Shown in pieces: positions 8,184 through 22,770 of a DNA stretch of 64,000 nucleotides. The stretch covers positions 3,895-67,894 of the forward strand of contig DAORIB010000002.1 in NCBI GenBank assembly GCA_035438265.1. Reading direction: 5' to 3'. The DNA is from Ferruginibacter sp. Its GTDB lineage: Bacteria > Bacteroidota > Bacteroidia > Chitinophagales > Chitinophagaceae. The position numbers were made by a program, and so were the translations under genes. The notes beneath the pieces are model-generated. The model was given only the letters and a program-made list of their open reading frames with translations, did not search any database and had not been told where the DNA came from. Positions within the stretch are counted from its first letter, which is position 1, and each line of letters begins with the position of its first letter.

Positions 8184-9068
8184 ATGAAAGTAAGTGGATT
8201 CACGTTTGTAAAGAATGCCGTGAAATATGGCTACCCGGTTGTTGAATCCATTACATCGCTTTTGCCGATTGTGGATGAAATGGTGGTTTGCCTGGGGGAT
8301 TCGGAAGACGAAACAAATAAGCTCATTGAATCAATAGGCTCTGACAAAATAAAGATCATTCATTCCGTATGGGACAACAGCCTGCGGGAAGGAGGTAAAG
8401 TGCTGGCGGTGGAAACCAACAAAGCCATGGATGCAACCGCCGCCGGAAGTGACTGGCTCTTTTACATACAGGCCGATGAAGTACTGCACGAACAGTATCA
8501 CCCGGTGATACTGGATGCGATGCGGAAGTATAAAGATGATAAACGGGTGGAAGGGTTGTTATTCCACTACCATCATTTTTACGGCAGTTACAGATTAATC
8601 GGCGATGGCAGAAAATGGTACTCGAAAGAGATCCGGGTGATCCGCAACAATAAAAAGATCCGCAGTTATCTCGATGCGCAGGGATTCAGGCTGGATGACC
8701 GGAAGCTGAATGTAAAACTGATCGATGCCTATATCTATCATTACGGCTGGGTACGCAACCCGGTAGCGATGAAAAAAAAGTATACCGACTTCAGCAAACT
8801 GTGGAATGAAGACCCTGTTCATAATGCCTGGGTGGCTGAAGAGGAGAAAAAGGGGCAGCAGTTCGATTATTCCAGCATCGACTCCGTAACTCTCTTCAAT
8901 GGTACCCACCCGGCAGTAATGAAAGAGCTGGTAAGTAAGGAAGACTGGAACTTTGAGATTGACGTAAAGAAAAAAAACTTCAAAAATACAAAGCACAGGC
9001 TCCTGTATTTTATCTGGAAGAATTTTGGATGGAGGCCATTTGAGTACAGTAATTATAAAAAGATTTAA
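8184..9068 (+). CDS. GT-A fold (GT2-like) glycosyltransferase inserted between sdhA and sdhB
   Basis: MKVSGFTFVKNA, DSEDET, WLFYIQADEVLHE (DXD-like), IYHYGWVR. Confidence 0.8.
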   Translation: MKVSGFTFVKNAVKYGYPVVESITSLLPIVDEMVVCLGDSEDETNKLIESIGSDKIKIIHSVWDNSLREGGKVLAVETNKAMDATAAGSDWLFYIQADEVLHEQYHPVILDAMRKYKDDKRVEGLLFHYHHFYGSYRLIGDGRKWYSKEIRVIRNNKKIRSYLDAQGFRLDDRKLNVKLIDAYIYHYGWVRNPVAMKKKYTDFSKLWNEDPVHNAWVAEEEKKGQQFDYSSIDSVTLFNGTHPAVMKELVSKEDWNFEIDVKKKNFKNTKHRLLYFIWKNFGWRPFEYSNYKKI

Positions 9069-9123
9069 CTGATTAAATCATCAGTAACAACCAAGCAATT
9101 CAGCAGTTAAGCAATTTATCTAT

Positions 9124-9885
9124 ATGGAACACTACACAATGAACCTCACACTGAAAGTGTGGAAACAAAAGAACAGCACAGCAACCGGTAACTTTGAAAC
9201 CTACCAGGTAAAAGACATCTCCTCCGAAATGTCGTTCCTCGAATTATTCGATGTGCTGAATGAACAGCTGATCCGTGAAGGGAAAGACCCGATCGCTTTT
9301 GACCACGACTGCCGCGAAGGAATCTGCGGCGCCTGCAGCATGTACATCAACGGGCGGGCGCATGGTCCCTGGGCTAAGAATACCACCTGCCAGCTGCACA
9401 TGCGTGCATTCAAGGACGGGGATACCATTGTAGTGGAGCCATGGAGAGCCGGGGCCTTCCCCGTGATCAAAGACCTGATGGTTGACCGTACTGCTTTCGA
9501 CCGCATCATCCAGGCCGGTGGCTATATTTCGGTAAATACCGGCAACGCGGTTGACGCCAACGCCATTCCCATTGATAAAAAAGATGCGGATGATGCATTC
9601 ATGGCGGCGGCCTGCATCGGTTGCGGCGCCTGTGTAGCCACCTGTAAGAACAGCAGTGCCATGCTGTTTGTAAGTGCCAAAGTTTCGCAACTGGCTTTAT
9701 TGCCCCAGGGCGAACCGGAAAGGGAATCGAGGGTGCTGAACATGGTGGCGCAAATGGACAAAGAAGGTTTCGGCAACTGCACCAACACCTATGCCTGCGA
9801 AGCGGAATGTCCCAAAGGAATTTCCGTGGCAAATATTGCACGTATGAACAGGGAATACCTGCGGGCCGGACTCAATGCCGACTAA
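9124..9885 (+). CDS. sdhB: Succinate dehydrogenase/fumarate reductase iron-sulfur subunit
   Basis: [34 protein letters not shown]. Confidence 0.97.
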
Positions 9886-9890
9886 GCCGT

Positions 9891-10817
9891 TTATTTCTTT
9901 CTGAACTTTTTATTCTTGATGGTGAACACCCTCGACAGGTTGAAGCCAAAGTGTATATCTCCTTTAAAGAAGTCGCCCGTGGTTTCGGTAATGAAGGTCT
10001 TCTCCGTCATGCCGGTTGAGTTGGTGAAATGAAGCTGGAATACGTGACCACCTGTTTCGATATCAAACCCTACCGCCAGCGAATTTTTGGTGCCGGGTAA
10101 CCGGTAATCCTGTCCCTCTACCAGCGAGATAGGCAATACGTGATAATACTCCACATTGAAGCTTAGCCGTTTCGACAACTTGATTCTTCCTCCGGCGCCC
10201 AGTGCAAAAATATCATTGGGGTCGGTTGCTGCCTGTGCCAGGTTATAATGCACGTACGACGGCATCAGCTGCAGGGAAAGACCTTCGCTGAATTTACGGG
10301 CGATGATCAGCTGGTGTGCATAGGTGATGCGTGAGGTATAATAGTTCTGTCGTTTGGGGTCTTCCCATTTCAGCGTATTGAGCATAACAGAAGAAGTGGC
10401 GCTGATGGAAATGGGTGAAGAACCACGCCCGCCTTTTGACTGGCGCAGGATCTTGAATTTATAATACGCATCGTATTGTTTCTGGTAGGTGCTGCGGCCG
10501 ATACCCACCATCAGCCGGTTGGATATGCCATAATCGAGCCCCATCCGCATGGTGGCCTGGTCGAGCCCGAAGAACTCATACGAGCCACGGTTCACCATGC
10601 CAAAGCGGTGAGAAATCTTAACGTCCATCACACCGGCTGCCACGTTCTCGATCGATTGACCATTGATCAGCCGGGTGGTTTTAAACGTAGCCGTAGCATA
10701 ATCTTTTTTTCGTTCTTTTTTACTTTCATTTTCCAGCATTTTCATCAGGTCGTCCTGTGCACGCAGCAAGGGCGAAAGAAGATTCAGCAGGAGAAACAAT
10801 ACGAGGTATTTTTTCAT
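9891..10817 (-). CDS. DUF5777-like outer-membrane beta-barrel protein
   Basis: Signal peptide, ATFKTTRLINGQS, ISHRFG, alternating beta-strands, DIETGGHVFQLHFTN, GFNLSRVF. Confidence 0.75.
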   Translation of the reverse strand: MKKYLVLFLLLNLLSPLLRAQDDLMKMLENESKKERKKDYATATFKTTRLINGQSIENVAAGVMDVKISHRFGMVNRGSYEFFGLDQATMRMGLDYGISNRLMVGIGRSTYQKQYDAYYKFKILRQSKGGRGSSPISISATSSVMLNTLKWEDPKRQNYYTSRITYAHQLIIARKFSEGLSLQLMPSYVHYNLAQAATDPNDIFALGAGGRIKLSKRLSFNVEYYHVLPISLVEGQDYRLPGTKNSLAVGFDIETGGHVFQLHFTNSTGMTEKTFITETTGDFFKGDIHFGFNLSRVFTIKNKKFRKK

Positions 10818-10835
10818 GATCAGGATTTTAACGGG

Positions 10836-11390
10836 TTAACTTTTGGGTTCGTACTTACAATCTACAGTTACATCAATGTCCTCCGATATCTTGTCAGCCA
10901 CCAGCGAGGGAATGCTCACATTGTAATCTTTCAGCTTGATGGAAAATCTGGACGTGGCATTTACTTTACCCGATTTGATGATAACAGAACCGGTGTAGCT
11001 CACTTGCCGGCTCACGCCATGCAGGTTCAGTTCACCTTCCACGGTAACCGGGTAGGCGCCGTCTTTGGAAAAATTCACCGAACTGATGTTCACGATCTTT
11101 CCCTTGAAAGTGGATTTGGGGTATTTGTTGCTCTCCACGTAGTTTTCATTGAAATGCTCCTCCATGAGTGCTCTTTCAAAATGAAAACTCTTGAGCAGGA
11201 TGGCAAACACCAGGTCGCCGGTTTGTGTGTTGAGCACACTGGATACTTCATTGTTATCCGCTTCCACTTTTTCGGGTGATTTGGCCCGCGAATAAAACGA
11301 TACTTTTCCCGATTTGGTCATCTGGATGTTTTGGGCGGCGGCACCCGTTGCCAGGCCGGCAAGCAGTACGCCGAAGAACAGTTTTTTCAT
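10836..11390 (-). CDS. YceI-family (polyisoprenoid-binding lipocalin-like) protein
   Basis: Start MKKLFF at 11390; FERALMEEHFNENYVES, GELNLHGV, FSIKLKDYNVSIP. Confidence 0.85.
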   Translation of the reverse strand: MKKLFFGVLLAGLATGAAAQNIQMTKSGKVSFYSRAKSPEKVEADNNEVSSVLNTQTGDLVFAILLKSFHFERALMEEHFNENYVESNKYPKSTFKGKIVNISSVNFSKDGAYPVTVEGELNLHGVSRQVSYTGSVIIKSGKVNATSRFSIKLKDYNVSIPSLVADKISEDIDVTVDCKYEPKS

Positions 11391-11400
11391 AGTTGTGTGT

Positions 11401-11775
11401 TTAATTATTTGGAGTTCCTGAATCGATCCATCGCTGAATACCCGCCAGGGTACAGGAGGGTAGTTTGGCTGCCCCTTTCGGCATGCTGCCATTTACTCCG
11501 GTAGAGCCCATCAGCCTGCCGTTAACAGCCTGCGTCTTCACACCGTTGTAGGTATCCAGTATCACCCCCGATGAGGCGGAGGCCGTGTTGTGGCACCCAC
11601 TGCTGTTGCAGTGTGTATTCATCAACGGCAGTACATCCGTTGAAAACTTCATCACCGTGGTGGTATCGCAGGGTACCTTTCCATCGGGATATAATAGTTC
11701 TGCCTTGTCGTAATAACAGCTTTCAAAGCTGAGTAAAACAAGGAAGCTGGCCAGGATTGTTACAATGATTTTCAT
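11401..11775 (-). CDS. Lipoprotein mono-haem c-type cytochrome with CX4CH motif
   Basis: Lipobox-like LSFES-C; CNSSGCH at 11590-11610; distal SMPKG Met; aligns with the C-terminal domain of the neighbouring di-haem protein. Confidence 0.7.
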   Translation of the reverse strand: MKIIVTILASFLVLLSFESCYYDKAELLYPDGKVPCDTTTVMKFSTDVLPLMNTHCNSSGCHNTASASSGVILDTYNGVKTQAVNGRLMGSTGVNGSMPKGAAKLPSCTLAGIQRWIDSGTPNN

Positions 11776-11802
11776 GATCGGTATTTAATGCGTGTTGTTT
11801 GA

Positions 11803-12507
11803 TTAATTATTGGGCGAACCTGCCGAGATCCATTTCTGCACCTGCGTGATGCGGCAGGCGGATAATTTATTTCCTCCCTGCGGCATGGCAATAAAGCCTG
11901 CATCATGCCGGATGCTGCCCAGCAGTTTGCCATTGAGTGCAATGCTCCGTACGCCCGCATACGTACTCAGGTCGATGCCGCCGCCTGCTGATGCAGGGTT
12001 ATGGCATCCCTTGCAGTAACTGTTCATCAATGGTGAAACAGCACCCGAGTAAGTGAACAGGGTGGTGTCGCAATCATTGCATGCATTGTTTTTGGCTCCC
12101 TGCAGGATCCATTTATAAATGAGGTCTTTTTGCGCCTGGGTAAAGGCAGCAGCCGGGGGAGGTGGCATCCGGTCTCCGCCCGTTTGGTTAAGCACTTTAT
12201 AGAGTTTGCTGTTTGCCGGGTCTCCCGGACGAACACCACCCGTAGCCATCACGTTTCCATACGTGGTAAGATTTACACCTTCCTTATGGGTAATGGCATC
12301 ATGACAACCACTCATGGCGCAACTGGAATTAAGCAGCGGCAATACGCTGTTCTGGAAGTAAACAGTATCCGCACTGCAGGTTTGTTCGCCGCCTGTAACA
12401 GGGGTTTCAATCACCTGTATGGGGATGTCGTGTTTACACGACATCATGATCAGCAGGAAAAGAAGAATTCCAATGATCTCCAGTAATCTTGAATTTACTG
12501 TATGCAT
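11803..12507 (-). CDS. Lipoprotein di-haem c-type cytochrome (CX4CH + CXXCH)
   Basis: Start MHTVNS at 12507; LIMMS-C lipobox; CAMSGCH (12301-12321) with RMPP, and CKGCH (12001-12015) with AMPQ. Confidence 0.8.
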   Translation of the reverse strand: MHTVNSRLLEIIGILLFLLIMMSCKHDIPIQVIETPVTGGEQTCSADTVYFQNSVLPLLNSSCAMSGCHDAITHKEGVNLTTYGNVMATGGVRPGDPANSKLYKVLNQTGGDRMPPPPAAAFTQAQKDLIYKWILQGAKNNACNDCDTTLFTYSGAVSPLMNSYCKGCHNPASAGGGIDLSTYAGVRSIALNGKLLGSIRHDAGFIAMPQGGNKLSACRITQVQKWISAGSPNN

Positions 12508-12554
12508 GGTTTGTGCAGGGTTTTTAAAATGGTTCTTCAAAAAGTATTGATATT

Positions 12555-12980
12555 TTATTTTTCCTGGATCATGCATCGTACCAATATCACATCGGTAAGA
12601 TACCCGGTGCAGATTCCCTTTATGGAAACCTGGGTTTTTGGTTTGATCTCATGCTGAACGATACCCTCCATGGTACACCGTACAGTGCCCATCCCGGTGC
12701 CATCCAGGGAAACGACGGTTTTTCCTTCCTGGTTTTTTGATACATCGGTCACGTAGCCCGACACTTCCAGTACCTTGTCCAGGTAATCGCGGTTCGCATT
12801 TGCTTCATTGGCTTCGTAAGCAGCCACCAGGTGCATGGCGGCAATGCGTACCGGCCTGATGTGCTGAACATCCCGGTGGGGTTTGGTATACATGCGGTAT
12901 CCCACAAAACCTGCCGTGATCAATGTCAGCAGCAGCAAGCCCCCGGTGGCAATGAGTATTTTCTTTTTACTCCTGGTCAT
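12555..12980 (-). CDS. Membrane-anchored OB-fold protein (tRNA_anti-like)
   Basis: Start MTRSKKK at 12980, one TM helix, AYEANEANANRDYLDKVLEVSGYV, VSIKGICTGYL. Confidence 0.7.
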   Translation of the reverse strand: MTRSKKKILIATGGLLLLTLITAGFVGYRMYTKPHRDVQHIRPVRIAAMHLVAAYEANEANANRDYLDKVLEVSGYVTDVSKNQEGKTVVSLDGTGMGTVRCTMEGIVQHEIKPKTQVSIKGICTGYLTDVILVRCMIQEK

Positions 12981-13053
12981 ACAAACGGTTTTATTGTTAT
13001 AAAGATGGACCCGGGTTGTATCATGCATTCCTTCTGCCTCTTTCAACCTTTAT

Positions 13054-13104
13054 CTGAACATGCCGGACCTGGATATACTTTCGCAAACCAGGCCAGCATG
13101 TCAG
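13054..13104. other. Imperfect intergenic stem-loop inside the cytochrome operon
   Basis: CTGAACATGCCGGACCTGG-N15-CCAGGCCAGCATGTCAG. Confidence 0.45.
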
Positions 13105-13133
13105 TTTTCCTGATACGCACCCTGCCCGTGTTA

Positions 13134-14708
13134 TTAATCTGAATACCGGTGTCCTGCATTCACCCAGTTGGTGATGATGGCTTTTTCCGCTGCAGTTAAA
13201 AACGGTTGAGGACTCTTAGGCATCTTCACCCATCCCGGGGCATACAATACACTGGTGTTGTTGATCTGGCTCCATTTTGATACGATATTGCAATCTGAAT
13301 CAAAATTGTAACCGGCTGCACTGTTGCCGGATCCGATATGACATCCGCTGCCGTTGCAACGGGTGGATATTAAGTTCCGTACCTGGGCAAACAACGGACC
13401 GCTGGCGATCACACCCACCGTGGTTGTTTGTGTTTTGGTACAGCCATTGGCATCCTTTACACCCATCACATAATTGCCCGCATTAAGGTTGGCAAACACA
13501 TTACTTGCCTGGTAAGCGCCTCCATTGATGTTGTAGGTGAAACCGGTAGAGCCGCTGGCTGTAACGGTAATGCTTCCGTTGTTGGTGGGTGTAACACAAG
13601 GGGTGGTGTTTACTACCGCTGTTGTAATTACAATGTTCACATTGCTGCATGGACTGGTTGCAGTAAGTGTTACCTGTGTACTGCCCAAACAGCCGTTGGA
13701 GTTTTTGGCAGTAACGGTATAGGTGCCGGCTGCCAGGTTACTGAATGTACCGCTGGCCTGGAAAGCACCATTATTCAGGCTATAGGTAAACCCGGTGCCG
13801 CCGGTAGCTGATGCAGTGATGGATCCGTTGCTTTGACCCGTAGTTGGATTAACGGTGGTGGTTGTTACCGTAACAGTTACCCCGGCACAGGGATTGGTGG
13901 ATCCCAGTGCCACCGTTGCAACCCCGGTACATCCGTTGGAGTTCTTGGCTGTGATGGTATAGTTTCCGGCTGCCAGGTTGCTGAATGTACCGCTGGCCTG
14001 GAAAGCTCCGTTGTTCAAACTATATGTGAACCCGGTGCCCCCGGTGGCAGTAGCAGTAATAGAACCATTGCTTTGACCGGTGGTTGGCTGAACCACGGTG
14101 GTGGTGACCACTACGGTCACACCCGCACAGGGGTTATTTGTTCCAACAGTGATCTGGCCGGTACCAATACAACCCGCCGCACTCCTGGCTGCAACGACAT
14201 ATGTACCTGCTGCGAGGTTGTTGAAGGTGCCGCTGGCCTGGAATGGTCCGCCATTCAAGCTGTATGTAAACCCGGTACCGCCGGTAGCGGTGGCGGTAAT
14301 GGTCCCGTTCGATTGATTGGGCGACGCATCGGTTTTTGATAAGTTAACAGTGATGGTAACACCCTGGCAGGGATCATAAGAGTCCACCTGTATCACTACA
14401 GTGTCGGTGCAGCCAACAGAGTTTCGGCCCACTACATTGTACGTGCGGAAGGGTTCAAGCCCGGAGAAGAAACCTGTGTCCTGGTAAGCGCCGCCGTTCA
14501 GGCTGTATTGGAAACCTGACCCTCCTGTTGCTGAAGCGGTGATGGTACCATTGTTCTGGTTCAGCGTGGCGGGGGTTTGGGTTGCCGTAACCGAAAAACC
14601 AATGGCATCGCAGGATGGAGCAGGGATCTCATGCTTACAGGCAAACTGAACCAGGGTGATCAGCACCGCCATCAGCCCAACAATTCTGATTGTAAGATTT
14701 CTTTTCAT
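13134..14708 (-). CDS. Lipoprotein with five SprB-like repeats and C-terminal CX4CH cytochrome c domain
   Basis: VQFA-C lipobox; five ~80 aa repeats (NGxITAxATGGTGFTYSLNxG...NLAAGxY...GC); CNGSGCH at 13338-13358 with distal KMPKSP. Confidence 0.8.
   Translation of the reverse strand: MKRNLTIRIVGLMAVLITLVQFACKHEIPAPSCDAIGFSVTATQTPATLNQNNGTITASATGGSGFQYSLNGGAYQDTGFFSGLEPFRTYNVVGRNSVGCTDTVVIQVDSYDPCQGVTITVNLSKTDASPNQSNGTITATATGGTGFTYSLNGGPFQASGTFNNLAAGTYVVAARSAAGCIGTGQITVGTNNPCAGVTVVVTTTVVQPTTGQSNGSITATATGGTGFTYSLNNGAFQASGTFSNLAAGNYTITAKNSNGCTGVATVALGSTNPCAGVTVTVTTTTVNPTTGQSNGSITASATGGTGFTYSLNNGAFQASGTFSNLAAGTYTVTAKNSNGCLGSTQVTLTATSPCSNVNIVITTAVVNTTPCVTPTNNGSITVTASGSTGFTYNINGGAYQASNVFANLNAGNYVMGVKDANGCTKTQTTTVGVIASGPLFAQVRNLISTRCNGSGCHIGSGNSAAGYNFDSDCNIVSKWSQINNTSVLYAPGWVKMPKSPQPFLTAAEKAIITNWVNAGHRYSD
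13410..14612 (-). repeat. Coding tandem repeat, ~240 bp period, five units
   Basis: CTGAATGTACCGCTGGCCTGGAA at 13741 and 13981, variant at 14221; more diverged units near 13500 and 14480. Confidence 0.85.
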
Positions 14709-19233: not shown

Positions 19234-20955
19234 TTACCGGTGAATAATAATTTTCTCTGTTATCACTTCCTCTTTCAGTTTCAGCCTTGCCAGGTAAACG
19301 CCCGTTTGCAGGAAGGGAAGATCAACCGGTAGTCTGCCTGAAAGGTTGTTGAACATTTTTTGAAATACCCGTTTGCCATCGGCGGCGTACAAGGTGATCC
19401 ATTCCACCGGCCTGTCGGAATACACAAAGAGCTGGCTGCCGGTAACCGGCACCGGGTAAAGAAATACACTCCGGGCAAAGGTTTTGCTTACACTTACGGT
19501 ATCGGAGTAAGTAATTCTTCCCGACCGGTCGGTAATCTTCAAGCGGTAATACAGTTTTGTGAAAACGGGTATGTTGTGACGGAAACTGTAGTTGTTGGCA
19601 GGCGGGATATTAATGGCATTCACTCTTCCGGCAGCACTGAAACTGGTTCCGTCGGTGCCGAATTCCACTTCAAAAAATGAAACATTCTGTTCATTCAGCG
19701 TTCGCCATTTAATTTCATTGTAGCCGTTTAATGCCGTAGCGGAAAAATCAAGTACGGTTACCGGCAAAATAGTACTGGTGATCACTTTATATAATACACC
19801 GTTCCTCGACAAGGCATACAGGTCGCCATTTTCTGCTTCGCCAAAACCGGCGATATTGCCCGGCAATCCGGCCTGTATGCTGGCGTCAAAACCACCGGAG
19901 CCATTTTGTTTGATCACCCAGGTATTGCCCGACACATAATCGGAGCAGATATAATACCCATACATCGCGGCAAATTCGGCGCCCCGGTACACATGACCAC
20001 CGGTGATGGAAAAACCACCCGTGGTTCCATTATGGGGATATACAAAAACAGGGGCAATGTAACTGCTTTGCGCCTGGCATCCTGCAGTGTTGTAAGCAGC
20101 ATTGCCTTCGTAACAGCGCCATCCGTAATTAACACCGCCGGATGTGGCATAGGTGCGGAAATCAACTTCCTCCCAGGCGCCTTGTCCCACATCGGCAATC
20201 CACATATCATGGGTAAGCCGGTCGAAGCTCCAGCGCCAGGGATTGCGCAAGCCCATGGCAAAGATCTCGTCACGCACAGATGGATTGCTTACATAGGGGT
20301 TATCGGCAGGAATGGTATAGTATGGAGGGGTATTGAAATTATCCACGTTGATGCGGATCATTTTTCCCAGCAATGAATTTCCGTTTTGAGAATTATTATC
20401 CGGGTCGCCGCCACTGCCGCCATCGCCGGTGCCAAAATACAGGTGGCCATCATGACCAAAGAGTAATTTCCCGCCATTGTGATTAGAATAAGTGGGATGC
20501 GGAATGGTGAGTATCACCCTGCCGGTTGTTTCATCGGCAGCATTGGGGTTGCCGGCCAGGGTTTGAAAACGGGTGATCCGTATGTCGCCGGCGGTATTGG
20601 TATAATAAACAAAGAAGTACCGGTTGCTTGCAAAGCCCGGGTGAAAAGCCATGCTTAATAAGCCACGCTCACCGCCACCGGCAATGCTATCCGGTATGTC
20701 CAGGAAATTGCCGGCCTGCAGTACGCCATTGGATACAATCCGTACCCGGCCATCCTGCTGTACAATGAAAAGCCGGTTGGTTCCGTCGCCGGCATTCACT
20801 ATATCCACCGGCGCCGTTAGTCCCGATGATACTACCGGGTTAAATATCAGAACCGGGGTGGGTTGTGCTGAGGAACGGCCATAAAATAAAAATGGTACTG
20901 CTACAATCAGCAACAGTACCACCGTATTTCTTTTAGCTGTATACAATGTACTCAT
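19234..20955 (-). CDS. PQQ-dependent (GSDH/sGDH-like) sugar dehydrogenase with T9SS C-terminal domain, paralog 1
   Basis: GERGLLSMAFHP, NHNGGKLLFG.DGHLY, GLRNPWR, WIADVGQ; C-terminal LYPVP...TGVYLARL. Confidence 0.88.
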   Translation of the reverse strand: MSTLYTAKRNTVVLLLIVAVPFLFYGRSSAQPTPVLIFNPVVSSGLTAPVDIVNAGDGTNRLFIVQQDGRVRIVSNGVLQAGNFLDIPDSIAGGGERGLLSMAFHPGFASNRYFFVYYTNTAGDIRITRFQTLAGNPNAADETTGRVILTIPHPTYSNHNGGKLLFGHDGHLYFGTGDGGSGGDPDNNSQNGNSLLGKMIRINVDNFNTPPYYTIPADNPYVSNPSVRDEIFAMGLRNPWRWSFDRLTHDMWIADVGQGAWEEVDFRTYATSGGVNYGWRCYEGNAAYNTAGCQAQSSYIAPVFVYPHNGTTGGFSITGGHVYRGAEFAAMYGYYICSDYVSGNTWVIKQNGSGGFDASIQAGLPGNIAGFGEAENGDLYALSRNGVLYKVITSTILPVTVLDFSATALNGYNEIKWRTLNEQNVSFFEVEFGTDGTSFSAAGRVNAINIPPANNYSFRHNIPVFTKLYYRLKITDRSGRITYSDTVSVSKTFARSVFLYPVPVTGSQLFVYSDRPVEWITLYAADGKRVFQKMFNNLSGRLPVDLPFLQTGVYLARLKLKEEVITEKIIIHR

Positions 20956-21042
20956 GATACAGGGTTTATCGGATGATAGACTTAACGCCTCCTTAACACA
21001 AATACAGTGCCAGAGGACCTTTTCGCCAGAATGAATACCAAT

Positions 21043-22770
21043 TTACTGGATCACCACTTTTTCAACCAGGTATTCTTCTTTTGTTTTCAGGCGGAGCAGG
21101 TATACACCTTTGGGCAGGCTGGGCAATGAAATGGCAATGGAGCCAGCACTGTTTTCCAGGTTACGGCGGAAGAGCAACCGTCCATCAGTGGTAAAAAGCT
21201 GAATCATTCCCACCGGTTTTTCAGTAATGAATTTCAGCTGGCCGCCGGTTACCGGGCTTGGAGATACTTTTACAGATGCTGCCTGTTTTCTATTAAGTAC
21301 CAGCACCGTTGAATAGGTAACACGTCCATCTTTGGCCGTTGTTTTCAGCCGGTAAAAGAGTTTTTCAAAACCGGCTACTAAATGGCGGAAGCTGTATTGA
21401 TTCTCTACGGTGCTGTTCAATGCGCTGATTTTCCCCGCATGTGCATACCTGCTGGCATCATCGCTGTATTCAATTTCGTAATGAAGGATATCCCGTTCGT
21501 TGGCGGTTTTCCATTTCAGTTCGTTGTACCCGGTAAATGCACGGGCAGTAAATTCAAGCAGTGATACAGCGAGCGGCCCCCCGCTGTTGGTGGTAACTTT
21601 ATAAAGCGTGCCGGTTAAAGTAACAGCATAAAGGGCTCCGTTCTCATCTTCTCCAAATCCTACAATGGAAAGCGGTAGTCCCGTTTGCATGGAAGTGGTC
21701 CATCCGCCACTGCCATTGGGTTTTATCAGCCAGGCATTGCCGGACACATAATCGGCGCAGATATAATAACCATACAATGCAGCATATTCAATGCCACGGT
21801 ATACGTGTCCGCCAATCACCGAAAATCCACCCGTTGCATTGTTGTGCGGATAAACAAAAATGGGAAAGCTGTAATTGGCAGGTGGTAAGCAACCGGCGGT
21901 TACAAAATCATCGTTGCCTTCGTAGCAACGCCAGCCGTAATTGATACCTCCCGAACCGCTGAGGGGCAGGTGATTGATCTCTTCCCAGGCTGCTTCACCC
22001 ACATCCGCCACCCATACATCATGGTTCAGCCGGTCGAAACTCCAACGCCAGGCATTACGCAGGCCTATGGCATAGACTTCGTCTTTTACATTCGGATCAT
22101 TTACGTATGGATTGTCCGCGGGGATGGTATAATACGGGGCCGTATTGAAATTATCCACGTTGATGCGGATCATTTTGCCCCAGAGTATATTTCCATTCTG
22201 TGCATGATTGTCGGGATCGCCACCCGGGCTTCCATCGCCGGGTGTGAAATACAAGTGACCATCGGGTCCGAAAAGCATTTTACCGCCGTTGTGGAAGCTG
22301 GTGGTAATGGCCGGAATGGTCATGATGACCACCCCCGTGGTTTGATTGATGGCTGTATTGGCGAGCGGGTTCGCTGCTTTAAACCGGGTTACCCTGATGT
22401 CATAATTGGATGTGAGGTAATAAATGAACAGGTATCCGTTGCTGGCATAATTGGGATGAAAGGCCATGCTGAGCAGCCCGTTTTCGTTGCCGGGTGGGAG
22501 GCTGTCGTGTATATCCAGGAAAGCAACTGCCTGCAGCACACCAGCCGAAACGATACGTACTTTGCCGGTTCGTTCCACAATAAATAACCGGTTGGTTCCG
22601 TCATTTGCATTCACAATATCGAGCGGGGAACTGAATCCTGTAGTAATCACCGGGGTGAATGTGAGTACCGGCGGCGATTGGGCGAAGGATGAAGCAATGG
22701 AAAAGAGTAGGGTGGAAGATGCCAACAGCACCGCTGCCAGACTTCGTTTTAAAGTGTACAGTTTGCACAT
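21043..22770 (-). CDS. PQQ-dependent (GSDH/sGDH-like) sugar dehydrogenase with T9SS C-terminal domain, paralog 2
   Basis: ENGLLSMAFHP, FHNGGKMLFGPDGHLY, GLRNAWR, WVADVGE; C-terminal VSPSP...KGVYLLRL. Confidence 0.88.
   Translation of the reverse strand: MCKLYTLKRSLAAVLLASSTLLFSIASSFAQSPPVLTFTPVITTGFSSPLDIVNANDGTNRLFIVERTGKVRIVSAGVLQAVAFLDIHDSLPPGNENGLLSMAFHPNYASNGYLFIYYLTSNYDIRVTRFKAANPLANTAINQTTGVVIMTIPAITTSFHNGGKMLFGPDGHLYFTPGDGSPGGDPDNHAQNGNILWGKMIRINVDNFNTAPYYTIPADNPYVNDPNVKDEVYAIGLRNAWRWSFDRLNHDVWVADVGEAAWEEINHLPLSGSGGINYGWRCYEGNDDFVTAGCLPPANYSFPIFVYPHNNATGGFSVIGGHVYRGIEYAALYGYYICADYVSGNAWLIKPNGSGGWTTSMQTGLPLSIVGFGEDENGALYAVTLTGTLYKVTTNSGGPLAVSLLEFTARAFTGYNELKWKTANERDILHYEIEYSDDASRYAHAGKISALNSTVENQYSFRHLVAGFEKLFYRLKTTAKDGRVTYSTVLVLNRKQAASVKVSPSPVTGGQLKFITEKPVGMIQLFTTDGRLLFRRNLENSAGSIAISLPSLPKGVYLLRLKTKEEYLVEKVVIQ

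Follow-up and report, generated by a model that had tools for sequence, protein, structure and literature searches.

Candidate CX4CH haem sites in PSCyt1/FoxE-like lipoprotein domains encoded by a conserved gene module of Bacteroidota

Cytochromes c3 and several multihaem proteins are already known to attach haem at a Cys-(x)4-Cys-His (CX4CH) motif. In the Desulfovibrio cytochrome c3, two of the four haems are bound at CX4CH, each through two thioether bonds made by System I. To our knowledge, the characterised members of the small class I cytochromes c6, c553 and c551 all carry CXXCH. Here we describe a locus in which CX4CH appears to be a native site of domains related to the latter class. 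It lies in a 64,000-nucleotide stretch of DNA from Ferruginibacter sp. (Chitinophagaceae; assembly GCA_035438265.1, contig DAORIB010000002.1, positions 3,895 to 67,894 of the forward strand; the whole stretch is called the window below) and consists of six co-directional minus-strand genes at 9891-14708 of the window, delineated from an open reading frame (ORF) list and Pfam matches. Three of these genes encode a mono-haem protein, a di-haem protein and a protein with SprB repeats and a C-terminal cytochrome-like domain (referred to by these names throughout, Table 1). Judged from sequence, the three likely encode lipid-anchored extracytoplasmic c-type cytochromes whose CX4CH domains bind haem.

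Among solved structures, FoxE (5MAB/5MVO) alone resembles these domains significantly in sequence; it is a di-haem Fe(II) oxidoreductase from Rhodobacter ferrooxidans SW2. In FoxE, both haems have His/Met ligation, the Met in each case coming from the opposite domain, and an auxiliary disulfide is present (PMC10654088). With the di-haem protein FoxE shares the arrangement of two small cytochrome domains, here predicted to be helical, in tandem, and with the domain profile a half-domain of the form '...PG(D/N)P..SK(L/V)(Y/F)....(D)RMPP.......WI.QGAK'. His/Met haems and an auxiliary disulfide pinning the C-terminal segment, both here predicted, are further common features (PMC10654088). The two differ in that FoxE has two CXXCH motifs, whereas domain 1 of the di-haem protein has CX4CH. 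They differ also in context: FoxE is a soluble periplasmic protein of Alphaproteobacteria encoded in a foxEYZ operon, whereas the protein described here is a lipoprotein encoded beside YceI, oligonucleotide/oligosaccharide-binding (OB)-fold and DUF5777 partners, and no FoxY/FoxZ context was found at this locus. The Pfam family PSCyt1 (PF07635, 'Planctomycete cytochrome C') has the same Met-Pro and the same WI.xGA C-terminal helix as domain 1. The class I families around c6, c553 and c551 (PF13442, PF00034) have in common with the domains a single motif near the N-terminus of an 80-90-residue helical domain, an axial Met flanked as G-x-x-A-M-P and an amphipathic C-terminal helix (Met ligation and helices here predicted), but they lack what sets the present locus apart, namely CX4CH in three of the four domains and an extra predicted clamp disulfide per domain. 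Cytochrome c3 has the same Cys spacing, but as a class III protein it carries four haems with bis-His ligation and is unrelated in sequence to the domains described here, each of which has one motif; weak matches to c3 in the PDB (E 0.2-0.9) span the motif alone. MccA (CX15CH) and NrfA (CXXCK) also have non-canonical haem c motifs but need their own lyase paralogue, whereas one CcmF-like gene was found here.

A preliminary description of the locus had listed the motifs CNSSGCH, CAMSGCH and CNGSGCH together with one CKGCH, each followed by a distal Met-Pro. All four were found on the minus strand, and Met-Pro lies 36-45 residues downstream of each of them. All three proteins carry a lipoprotein signal peptide. 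The four domains are homologous by hhalign (98-99.4%) at a pairwise identity of 25-50%, and would represent one small domain type, three copies of which have two extra residues after the first Cys, giving C-x-x-[ST]-G-C-H for C-x-G-C-H. For the mono-haem domain and domain 2 of the di-haem protein, an end-to-end alignment with CX4CH facing CXXCH had been proposed. This was borne out at 50% identity with few short gaps, one of which is the 2-residue gap in the motif. To ask how often such motifs occur elsewhere, the genome (3.7 megabases) was translated in six frames and its 23,439 ORFs of ≥60 residues were scanned for C-x2-[SGAT]-G-C-H. The pattern matched 5 times; the remaining 2 matches lie in ORFs without any feature of this domain. 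The three CX4CH motifs at the locus thus exceed chance, because 3 of the 5 genome-wide matches fall here, in homologous domains.

We then compared the Cys spacing among homologues. In the mono-haem family (113 homologues, with the spacing read at one aligned site), C56, C61, H62 and W116 were the only invariant residues, so that no second conserved His was found, and M98 and P99 were near-invariant. The aligned site was CX4CH in 90 members, CX3CH in 10 (e.g. P0052) and CXXCH in 13 (e.g. P0100 of Flavihumibacter profundi). A tree of this family, computed with the motif columns left out, required at least 4 spacing changes, compared with ~22 when labels were shuffled; the CXXCH forms made up one clade, and CX3CH arose at least 2 times. 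For the di-haem family, counts refer to the closest 120 of 1585 homologues. Both motifs and M208-P209 were invariant in this alignment, the combination of CX4CH with CXXCH was present in 108 and that of CX5CH with CXXCH in 2, and five three-domain relatives also bear a CX4CH site. The SprB-protein C-terminal domain, counted in 120 of the 177 proteins that have it, showed CX4CH in 117, CX3CH in 2, CX5CH in 1 and CXXCH in 0. In alignments of 113, 120 and 26 homologues, Cys-(x)n-Cys-His near the N-terminus was invariant, with the His directly after the second Cys. As judged from these three independent orthologue sets, the stretched spacing is a conserved, selected trait.

The same picture emerged from wider sampling. 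In 80 named species genomes, whose GTDB loci were located by the di-haem family alignment, the domain 1 motif was stretched in all and CX4CH nearly always, and domain 2 had CXXCH where detected; the labels of these genomes cover six orders (Chitinophagales, Sphingobacteriales, Cytophagales, Saprospirales, Bacteroidales and Flavobacteriales). Among 1.84 billion representative proteins searched with a profile, 13,765 relatives were found at E ≤ 0.001, and motifs were tallied in the best 150. These were lipoproteins of two to eight domains, with 183 CX4CH and 218 CXXCH domains, and Met-Pro followed 30-50 residues downstream in 183/183 of the former and 215/218 of the latter. Named members included proteins from Bacteroidota and one from Ignavibacteria. 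Longer spacings were also found at homologous sites, both CX5CH (CAMTGGCH, CSGSGGCH, CGTSNSCH) and CX6CH (CHASASACH), in L073 (a Saprospiraceae metagenome-assembled genome), P0218, P0225 and L010; the motif loop seems able to grow further than CX4CH. That CX4CH is equivalent to CXXCH, as first proposed from the two aligned domains of the locus, agrees with the mono-haem orthologues, which swap CX4CH, CX3CH and CXXCH at one site while Cys, Cys-His and Met-Pro are held. The related proposal of a CXXSGCH-type cytochrome family was likewise supported, with one qualification. A conserved motif of the C-x2-[ST]-G-C-H type is present (80 genomes, 108/120 homologues, 183 domains), but on the alignments the spacing varies (2, 3, 4, 5, even 6 residues) within a PSCyt1/FoxE-like family and does not mark a separate one.

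Profile comparisons placed the domains more closely. With Pfam gathering cut-offs of 22 bits for PSCyt1 and 27 bits for Cytochrome_CBB3, domain 1 of the di-haem protein matched PSCyt1 at 40.5 bits and domain 2 matched Cytochrome_CBB3 (PF13442) at 30.4 bits, the latter being class-I c6/c553-like. The PSCyt1 model opens with CXXCH, a canonical start that CAMSGCH, CNSSGCH and CNGSGCH, as CX4CH motifs, do not offer, and the match in domain 1 begins at model position 3, just past the displaced first Cys. The mono-haem and SprB-protein C-terminal domains are tied to the PSCyt1 family solely via hhalign: against a PSCyt1-type CX4CH profile they gave 99.4% (E 6.8e-22) and 98% (E 2.8e-13), respectively, in both cases with the motif and Met-Pro in register. 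Removal of two residues in silico, which turned CNSSGCH into CSGCH, did not regain a significant Pfam match, and the mono-haem family is therefore divergent beyond the motif itself. One CXXCH-type mono-haem orthologue (P0098) reached the PF00034 cut-off; the others stayed under the PF13442 and PF00034 cut-offs. FoxE (5MAB) was matched at E 2.9e-7 with the domain profile and at 2.5e-4 with the whole-family profile. The mono-haem profile also aligned end to end with cytochrome c6, weakly (E 0.064), with a 2-residue gap in the motif and the 'AMP' of c6, which we take to carry its axial Met, on Met-Pro. By these comparisons the domains are a branch of the small His/Met class-I cytochromes c, PSCyt1/FoxE-like, with FoxE as the closest characterised relative. 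Separately, the NCBIfam model NF047812 ('LIC11213 family lipoprotein', Leptospira) matched domain 1 (12085-12381) at E 3e-15, which is under its cut-off. Spirochaetes may thus have PSCyt1-like lipoprotein domains as well.

In the mechanism that we propose, haem would be joined through thioethers to both motif Cys and ligated proximally by the His that follows the second of them and distally by the conserved downstream Met of Met-Pro; in the di-haem protein, this Met may be supplied by the partner domain, as in FoxE. A single System I (CcmF/CcmE/CcmC/CcmB) would attach haem to all of the sites. The System I-type set of the genome (contigs C242 and C65) has one CcmF/NrfE-family ORF (824 residues, 1.5e-53) with an adjoining CcmE match, and, since this CcmF-like gene is single, no dedicated lyase is apparent. 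CcmC-like and CcmB-like ORFs elsewhere in the genome matched weakly, at 29.8 and 21.7 bits, under the curated cut-offs. Maturation by System II (CcsBA), at first expected from the phylum, was rejected: ResB was not found in this genome, whereas the control genome of Bacteroides thetaiotaomicron has it, and the large Cytochrom_C_asm protein is a CcmF/NrfE-family member that adjoins CcmE, with CcmC-like and CcmB-like genes elsewhere. Since Ccm is present and System II is not, expression with Ccm is an apt test system. CX3CH and CX4CH are both listed as accepted haem c motifs (PMC11492766), and the literature on CcsBA and HCCS that we checked makes no statement on longer Cys spacings.

Several observations weigh against haem binding by the CX4CH domains. 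Pfam gave no cytochrome match on the mono-haem protein or on the SprB-protein C-terminal domain. The FoxE alignment spans the half-domain with RMPP and the WI.QGAK helix, and the haem motif is outside it. No match to the locus was found in the RNA runs searched. Lastly, for acceptance of CX4CH by Ccm in a His/Met class-I scaffold we rely on the E. coli system, whose Ccm reportedly matures CX3CH and CX4CH variants. The failure of the Pfam cytochrome models on two of the three proteins, together with structure searches in which the models gave no significant cytochrome match, would fit an explanation that we regard as unlikely, in which the CX4CH domains are degenerate folds that have lost haem, the Cys pair serves as a disulfide or metal site and haem is bound by the CXXCH domain only. 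However, Cys-x4-Cys-His and Met-Pro are invariant over hundreds of sequences from six labelled orders, which is unexpected after loss of function, and a dead site would not toggle with CXXCH and CX3CH among orthologues. The AlphaFold models, which are of moderate confidence (predicted local distance difference test scores of 83.5 and 77.8), do not bear on this point: in the di-haem model, confidence was below 50 at both haem loops, equally low at the canonical CKGCH loop, and is thus uninformative on CX4CH.

Haem could also be held by one thioether, from the second Cys, with the first Cys free or in another role such as a redox switch. Single-Cys attachment occurs in nature, as in the A/FXXCH cytochromes of euglenozoans, and two extra residues could put the first Cys out of reach. 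Yet the first Cys is invariant in all CX4CH, CX3CH and CXXCH members, and the insertion consists of small residues (Ser/Thr-Gly), which would suit a loop that still wraps the haem edge. CX4CH in cytochromes c3 is generally known to give two thioethers (the motif is listed in PMC11492766). We therefore consider attachment by one thioether quite unlikely. A third explanation, that the clustering is a local accident of recent duplication without wider meaning, is in keeping with the paralogy of the four domains but is refuted, since the domains are just 25-50% identical, each protein belongs to a large orthologue family of its own in which the motif is retained, and gene order is conserved over genera and orders.

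Haem binding at CX4CH remained our preferred interpretation. Besides the motif Cys, every cytochrome domain has one further conserved pair (mono-haem protein, C36/C108; di-haem protein, C44/C143 and C146/C218). By comparison with Cys80-Cys258 of FoxE, these are probably clamp disulfides that join the N-terminal segment to the C-terminal helix. In the subclade with CATxGCH-type motifs, the second Cys of the clamp pair is shifted to the 'CWIDSG' helix. The extra Cys pairs fit an oxidising compartment. The mono-haem lipobox reads ...SFESC20, and the mature N-terminus CYYDKAELLYP (11686-11718, minus strand) is conserved and near-invariant; the di-haem lipobox reads ...IMMSC, followed by KHDIP. A C-K-H-[ED]-[IL]-P sequence after the lipid-anchor Cys is common to the di-haem (12490-12507) and SprB-repeat (14622-14639) proteins, both on the minus strand. 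Such conserved residues past the anchor Cys could act as sorting signals that direct export to the surface, or as peptides that dock to a partner, e.g. the DUF5777 barrel. Two elements of the SprB-protein C-terminal domain are absent from the other domains: an invariant 'NFD.DC' segment and, where the last helix ends, an invariant His within 'W(V/I)NAGH'. This His might serve as a contact residue or as an alternative ligand of the haem.

Table 1. Genes of the locus and positions of the candidate haem motifs in the window
Feature	Position	Strand	Basis or details
DUF5777 beta-barrel protein	9891-10817	-	Pfam 2.8e-97
YceI-like periplasmic protein	10836-11390 (likely start MKKLFF; ORF to 11492)	-	Pfam 2.4e-15
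Mono-haem lipoprotein, 124 residues, one predicted cytochrome domain	11401-11775	-	ORF; 113 homologues
CNSSGCH (CX4CH), mono-haem residues 56-62	11590-11610	-	Met-Pro at residues 98-99, SMPKG 11473-11487
Di-haem lipoprotein, 234 residues from M24	11803-12507 (ORF to 12576)	-	Homologues begin at M24
CAMSGCH (CX4CH), di-haem domain 1, residues 63-69	12301-12321	-	Met-Pro at residues 114-115, RMPPP 12157-12171
CKGCH (CXXCH), di-haem domain 2, residues 165-169	12001-12015	-	Internal control; Met-Pro at residues 208-209, AMPQG 11875-11889
Membrane-anchored OB-fold protein (tRNA_anti-like, PF12869)	12555-13046	-	Pfam 8.5e-21
Lipoprotein, 524 residues, five SprB repeats and C-terminal cytochrome-like domain (13137-13415)	13134-14708	-	Pfam: SprB only
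CNGSGCH (CX4CH), SprB-protein C-terminal domain, residues 451-457	13338-13358	-	Met-Pro at residues 496-497, KMPKS 13212-13226

Across the 80 named loci, the surroundings of the cytochrome genes were compared. YceI neighboured the di-haem gene in 70, DUF5777 in 69 and the OB-fold gene in 52, and a mono-haem-type match, in most loci a separate gene, was also present. The same gene order was found in Ferruginibacter profundus and Flavihumibacter profundi; these two and Daejeonella rubra DSM 24536 are cultured carriers. Among 401 evenly sampled Bacteroidota genomes from 178 genera, the di-haem gene (called at E ≤ 1e-20) was present in 43 (~11%), belonging to 34 genera, and DNA of the locus was common in activated-sludge and wastewater metagenomes. 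From its gene content, the module looks like an envelope redox system, in which the cytochromes would act as electron carriers together with YceI, the OB-fold protein and the DUF5777 barrel. Upstream in the window lie a LytTR regulator, a Y_Y_Y/propeller histidine kinase, a second YceI and two GSDH-type dehydrogenases. The latter (19234-22770, minus strand) are in tandem upstream of the regulator genes, are pyrroloquinoline quinone (PQQ)-dependent-like and have C-terminal sorting domains of the type IX secretion system. FoxY, encoded in the same operon as FoxE, is a PQQ protein too; the parallel is suggestive. A general link between the cytochromes and GSDH dehydrogenases was rejected, as the latter were within 5 kilobases of the cytochromes in 1 of the 80 loci.

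A joint reading of these observations is possible but tentative. The CX4CH domains may be the signature haem carriers of an undescribed Bacteroidota envelope electron-transfer module that moves electrons between the surface and the respiratory chain. Its parts would be the FoxE-related lipoprotein cytochromes, a YceI-type isoprenoid or quinone binder, the OB-fold anchor and a small DUF5777 outer-membrane barrel. To these, the lineage studied here would add a cytochrome on an SprB-repeat stalk and cell-surface PQQ-type dehydrogenases. On the surface side, the partners might be Fe(II) or the substrates of the surface dehydrogenases, and the stretched motif would serve to adjust haem exposure or potential for this role.

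As to existing annotation, the di-haem protein is already named a c-type cytochrome by NCBI and JGI, on its PSCyt1 match and one CXXCH, and the mono-haem and SprB-repeat proteins are labelled 'hypothetical' or 'SprB repeat' in the sources. The expectation that standard screens would miss the family thus held for the latter two, on which Pfam was blank, but not for the annotated di-haem protein, and some published genome screens already use CX2-4CH (PMC10734462). Bacteroidota cytochrome inventories from soil, freshwater and wastewater are undercounted, because Pfam and strict CXXCH counting miss two of the three proteins. Our literature search returned no paper on DUF5777, and PSCyt1 appeared in genome surveys only. 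Three aspects appear to be new, in that no paper was found on them: CX4CH as a predicted conserved native site of a His/Met class-I/PSCyt1-type domain, the natural interchange of this site with CX3CH, CX5CH and CXXCH in orthologues, and the lack of cytochrome annotation for two of the three CX4CH protein families. If haem is confirmed, this would be, as far as we found, the first His/Met class-I-type family with CX4CH as a conserved native site, and would provide a natural experiment on Cys spacing versus Ccm haem attachment and redox potential. The FoxE link and the tight synteny with YceI and DUF5777 offer an entry point to an unstudied envelope redox system.

Outside the cytochrome genes, we observed a gene of ~290 residues between sdhA and sdhB (region 8184-9885, plus strand). 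Ferruginibacter profundus has the same arrangement of SdhB, a 290-residue protein without a Pfam match and SdhA; the arrangement is therefore conserved in the lineage and does not reflect a recent insertion in this genome.

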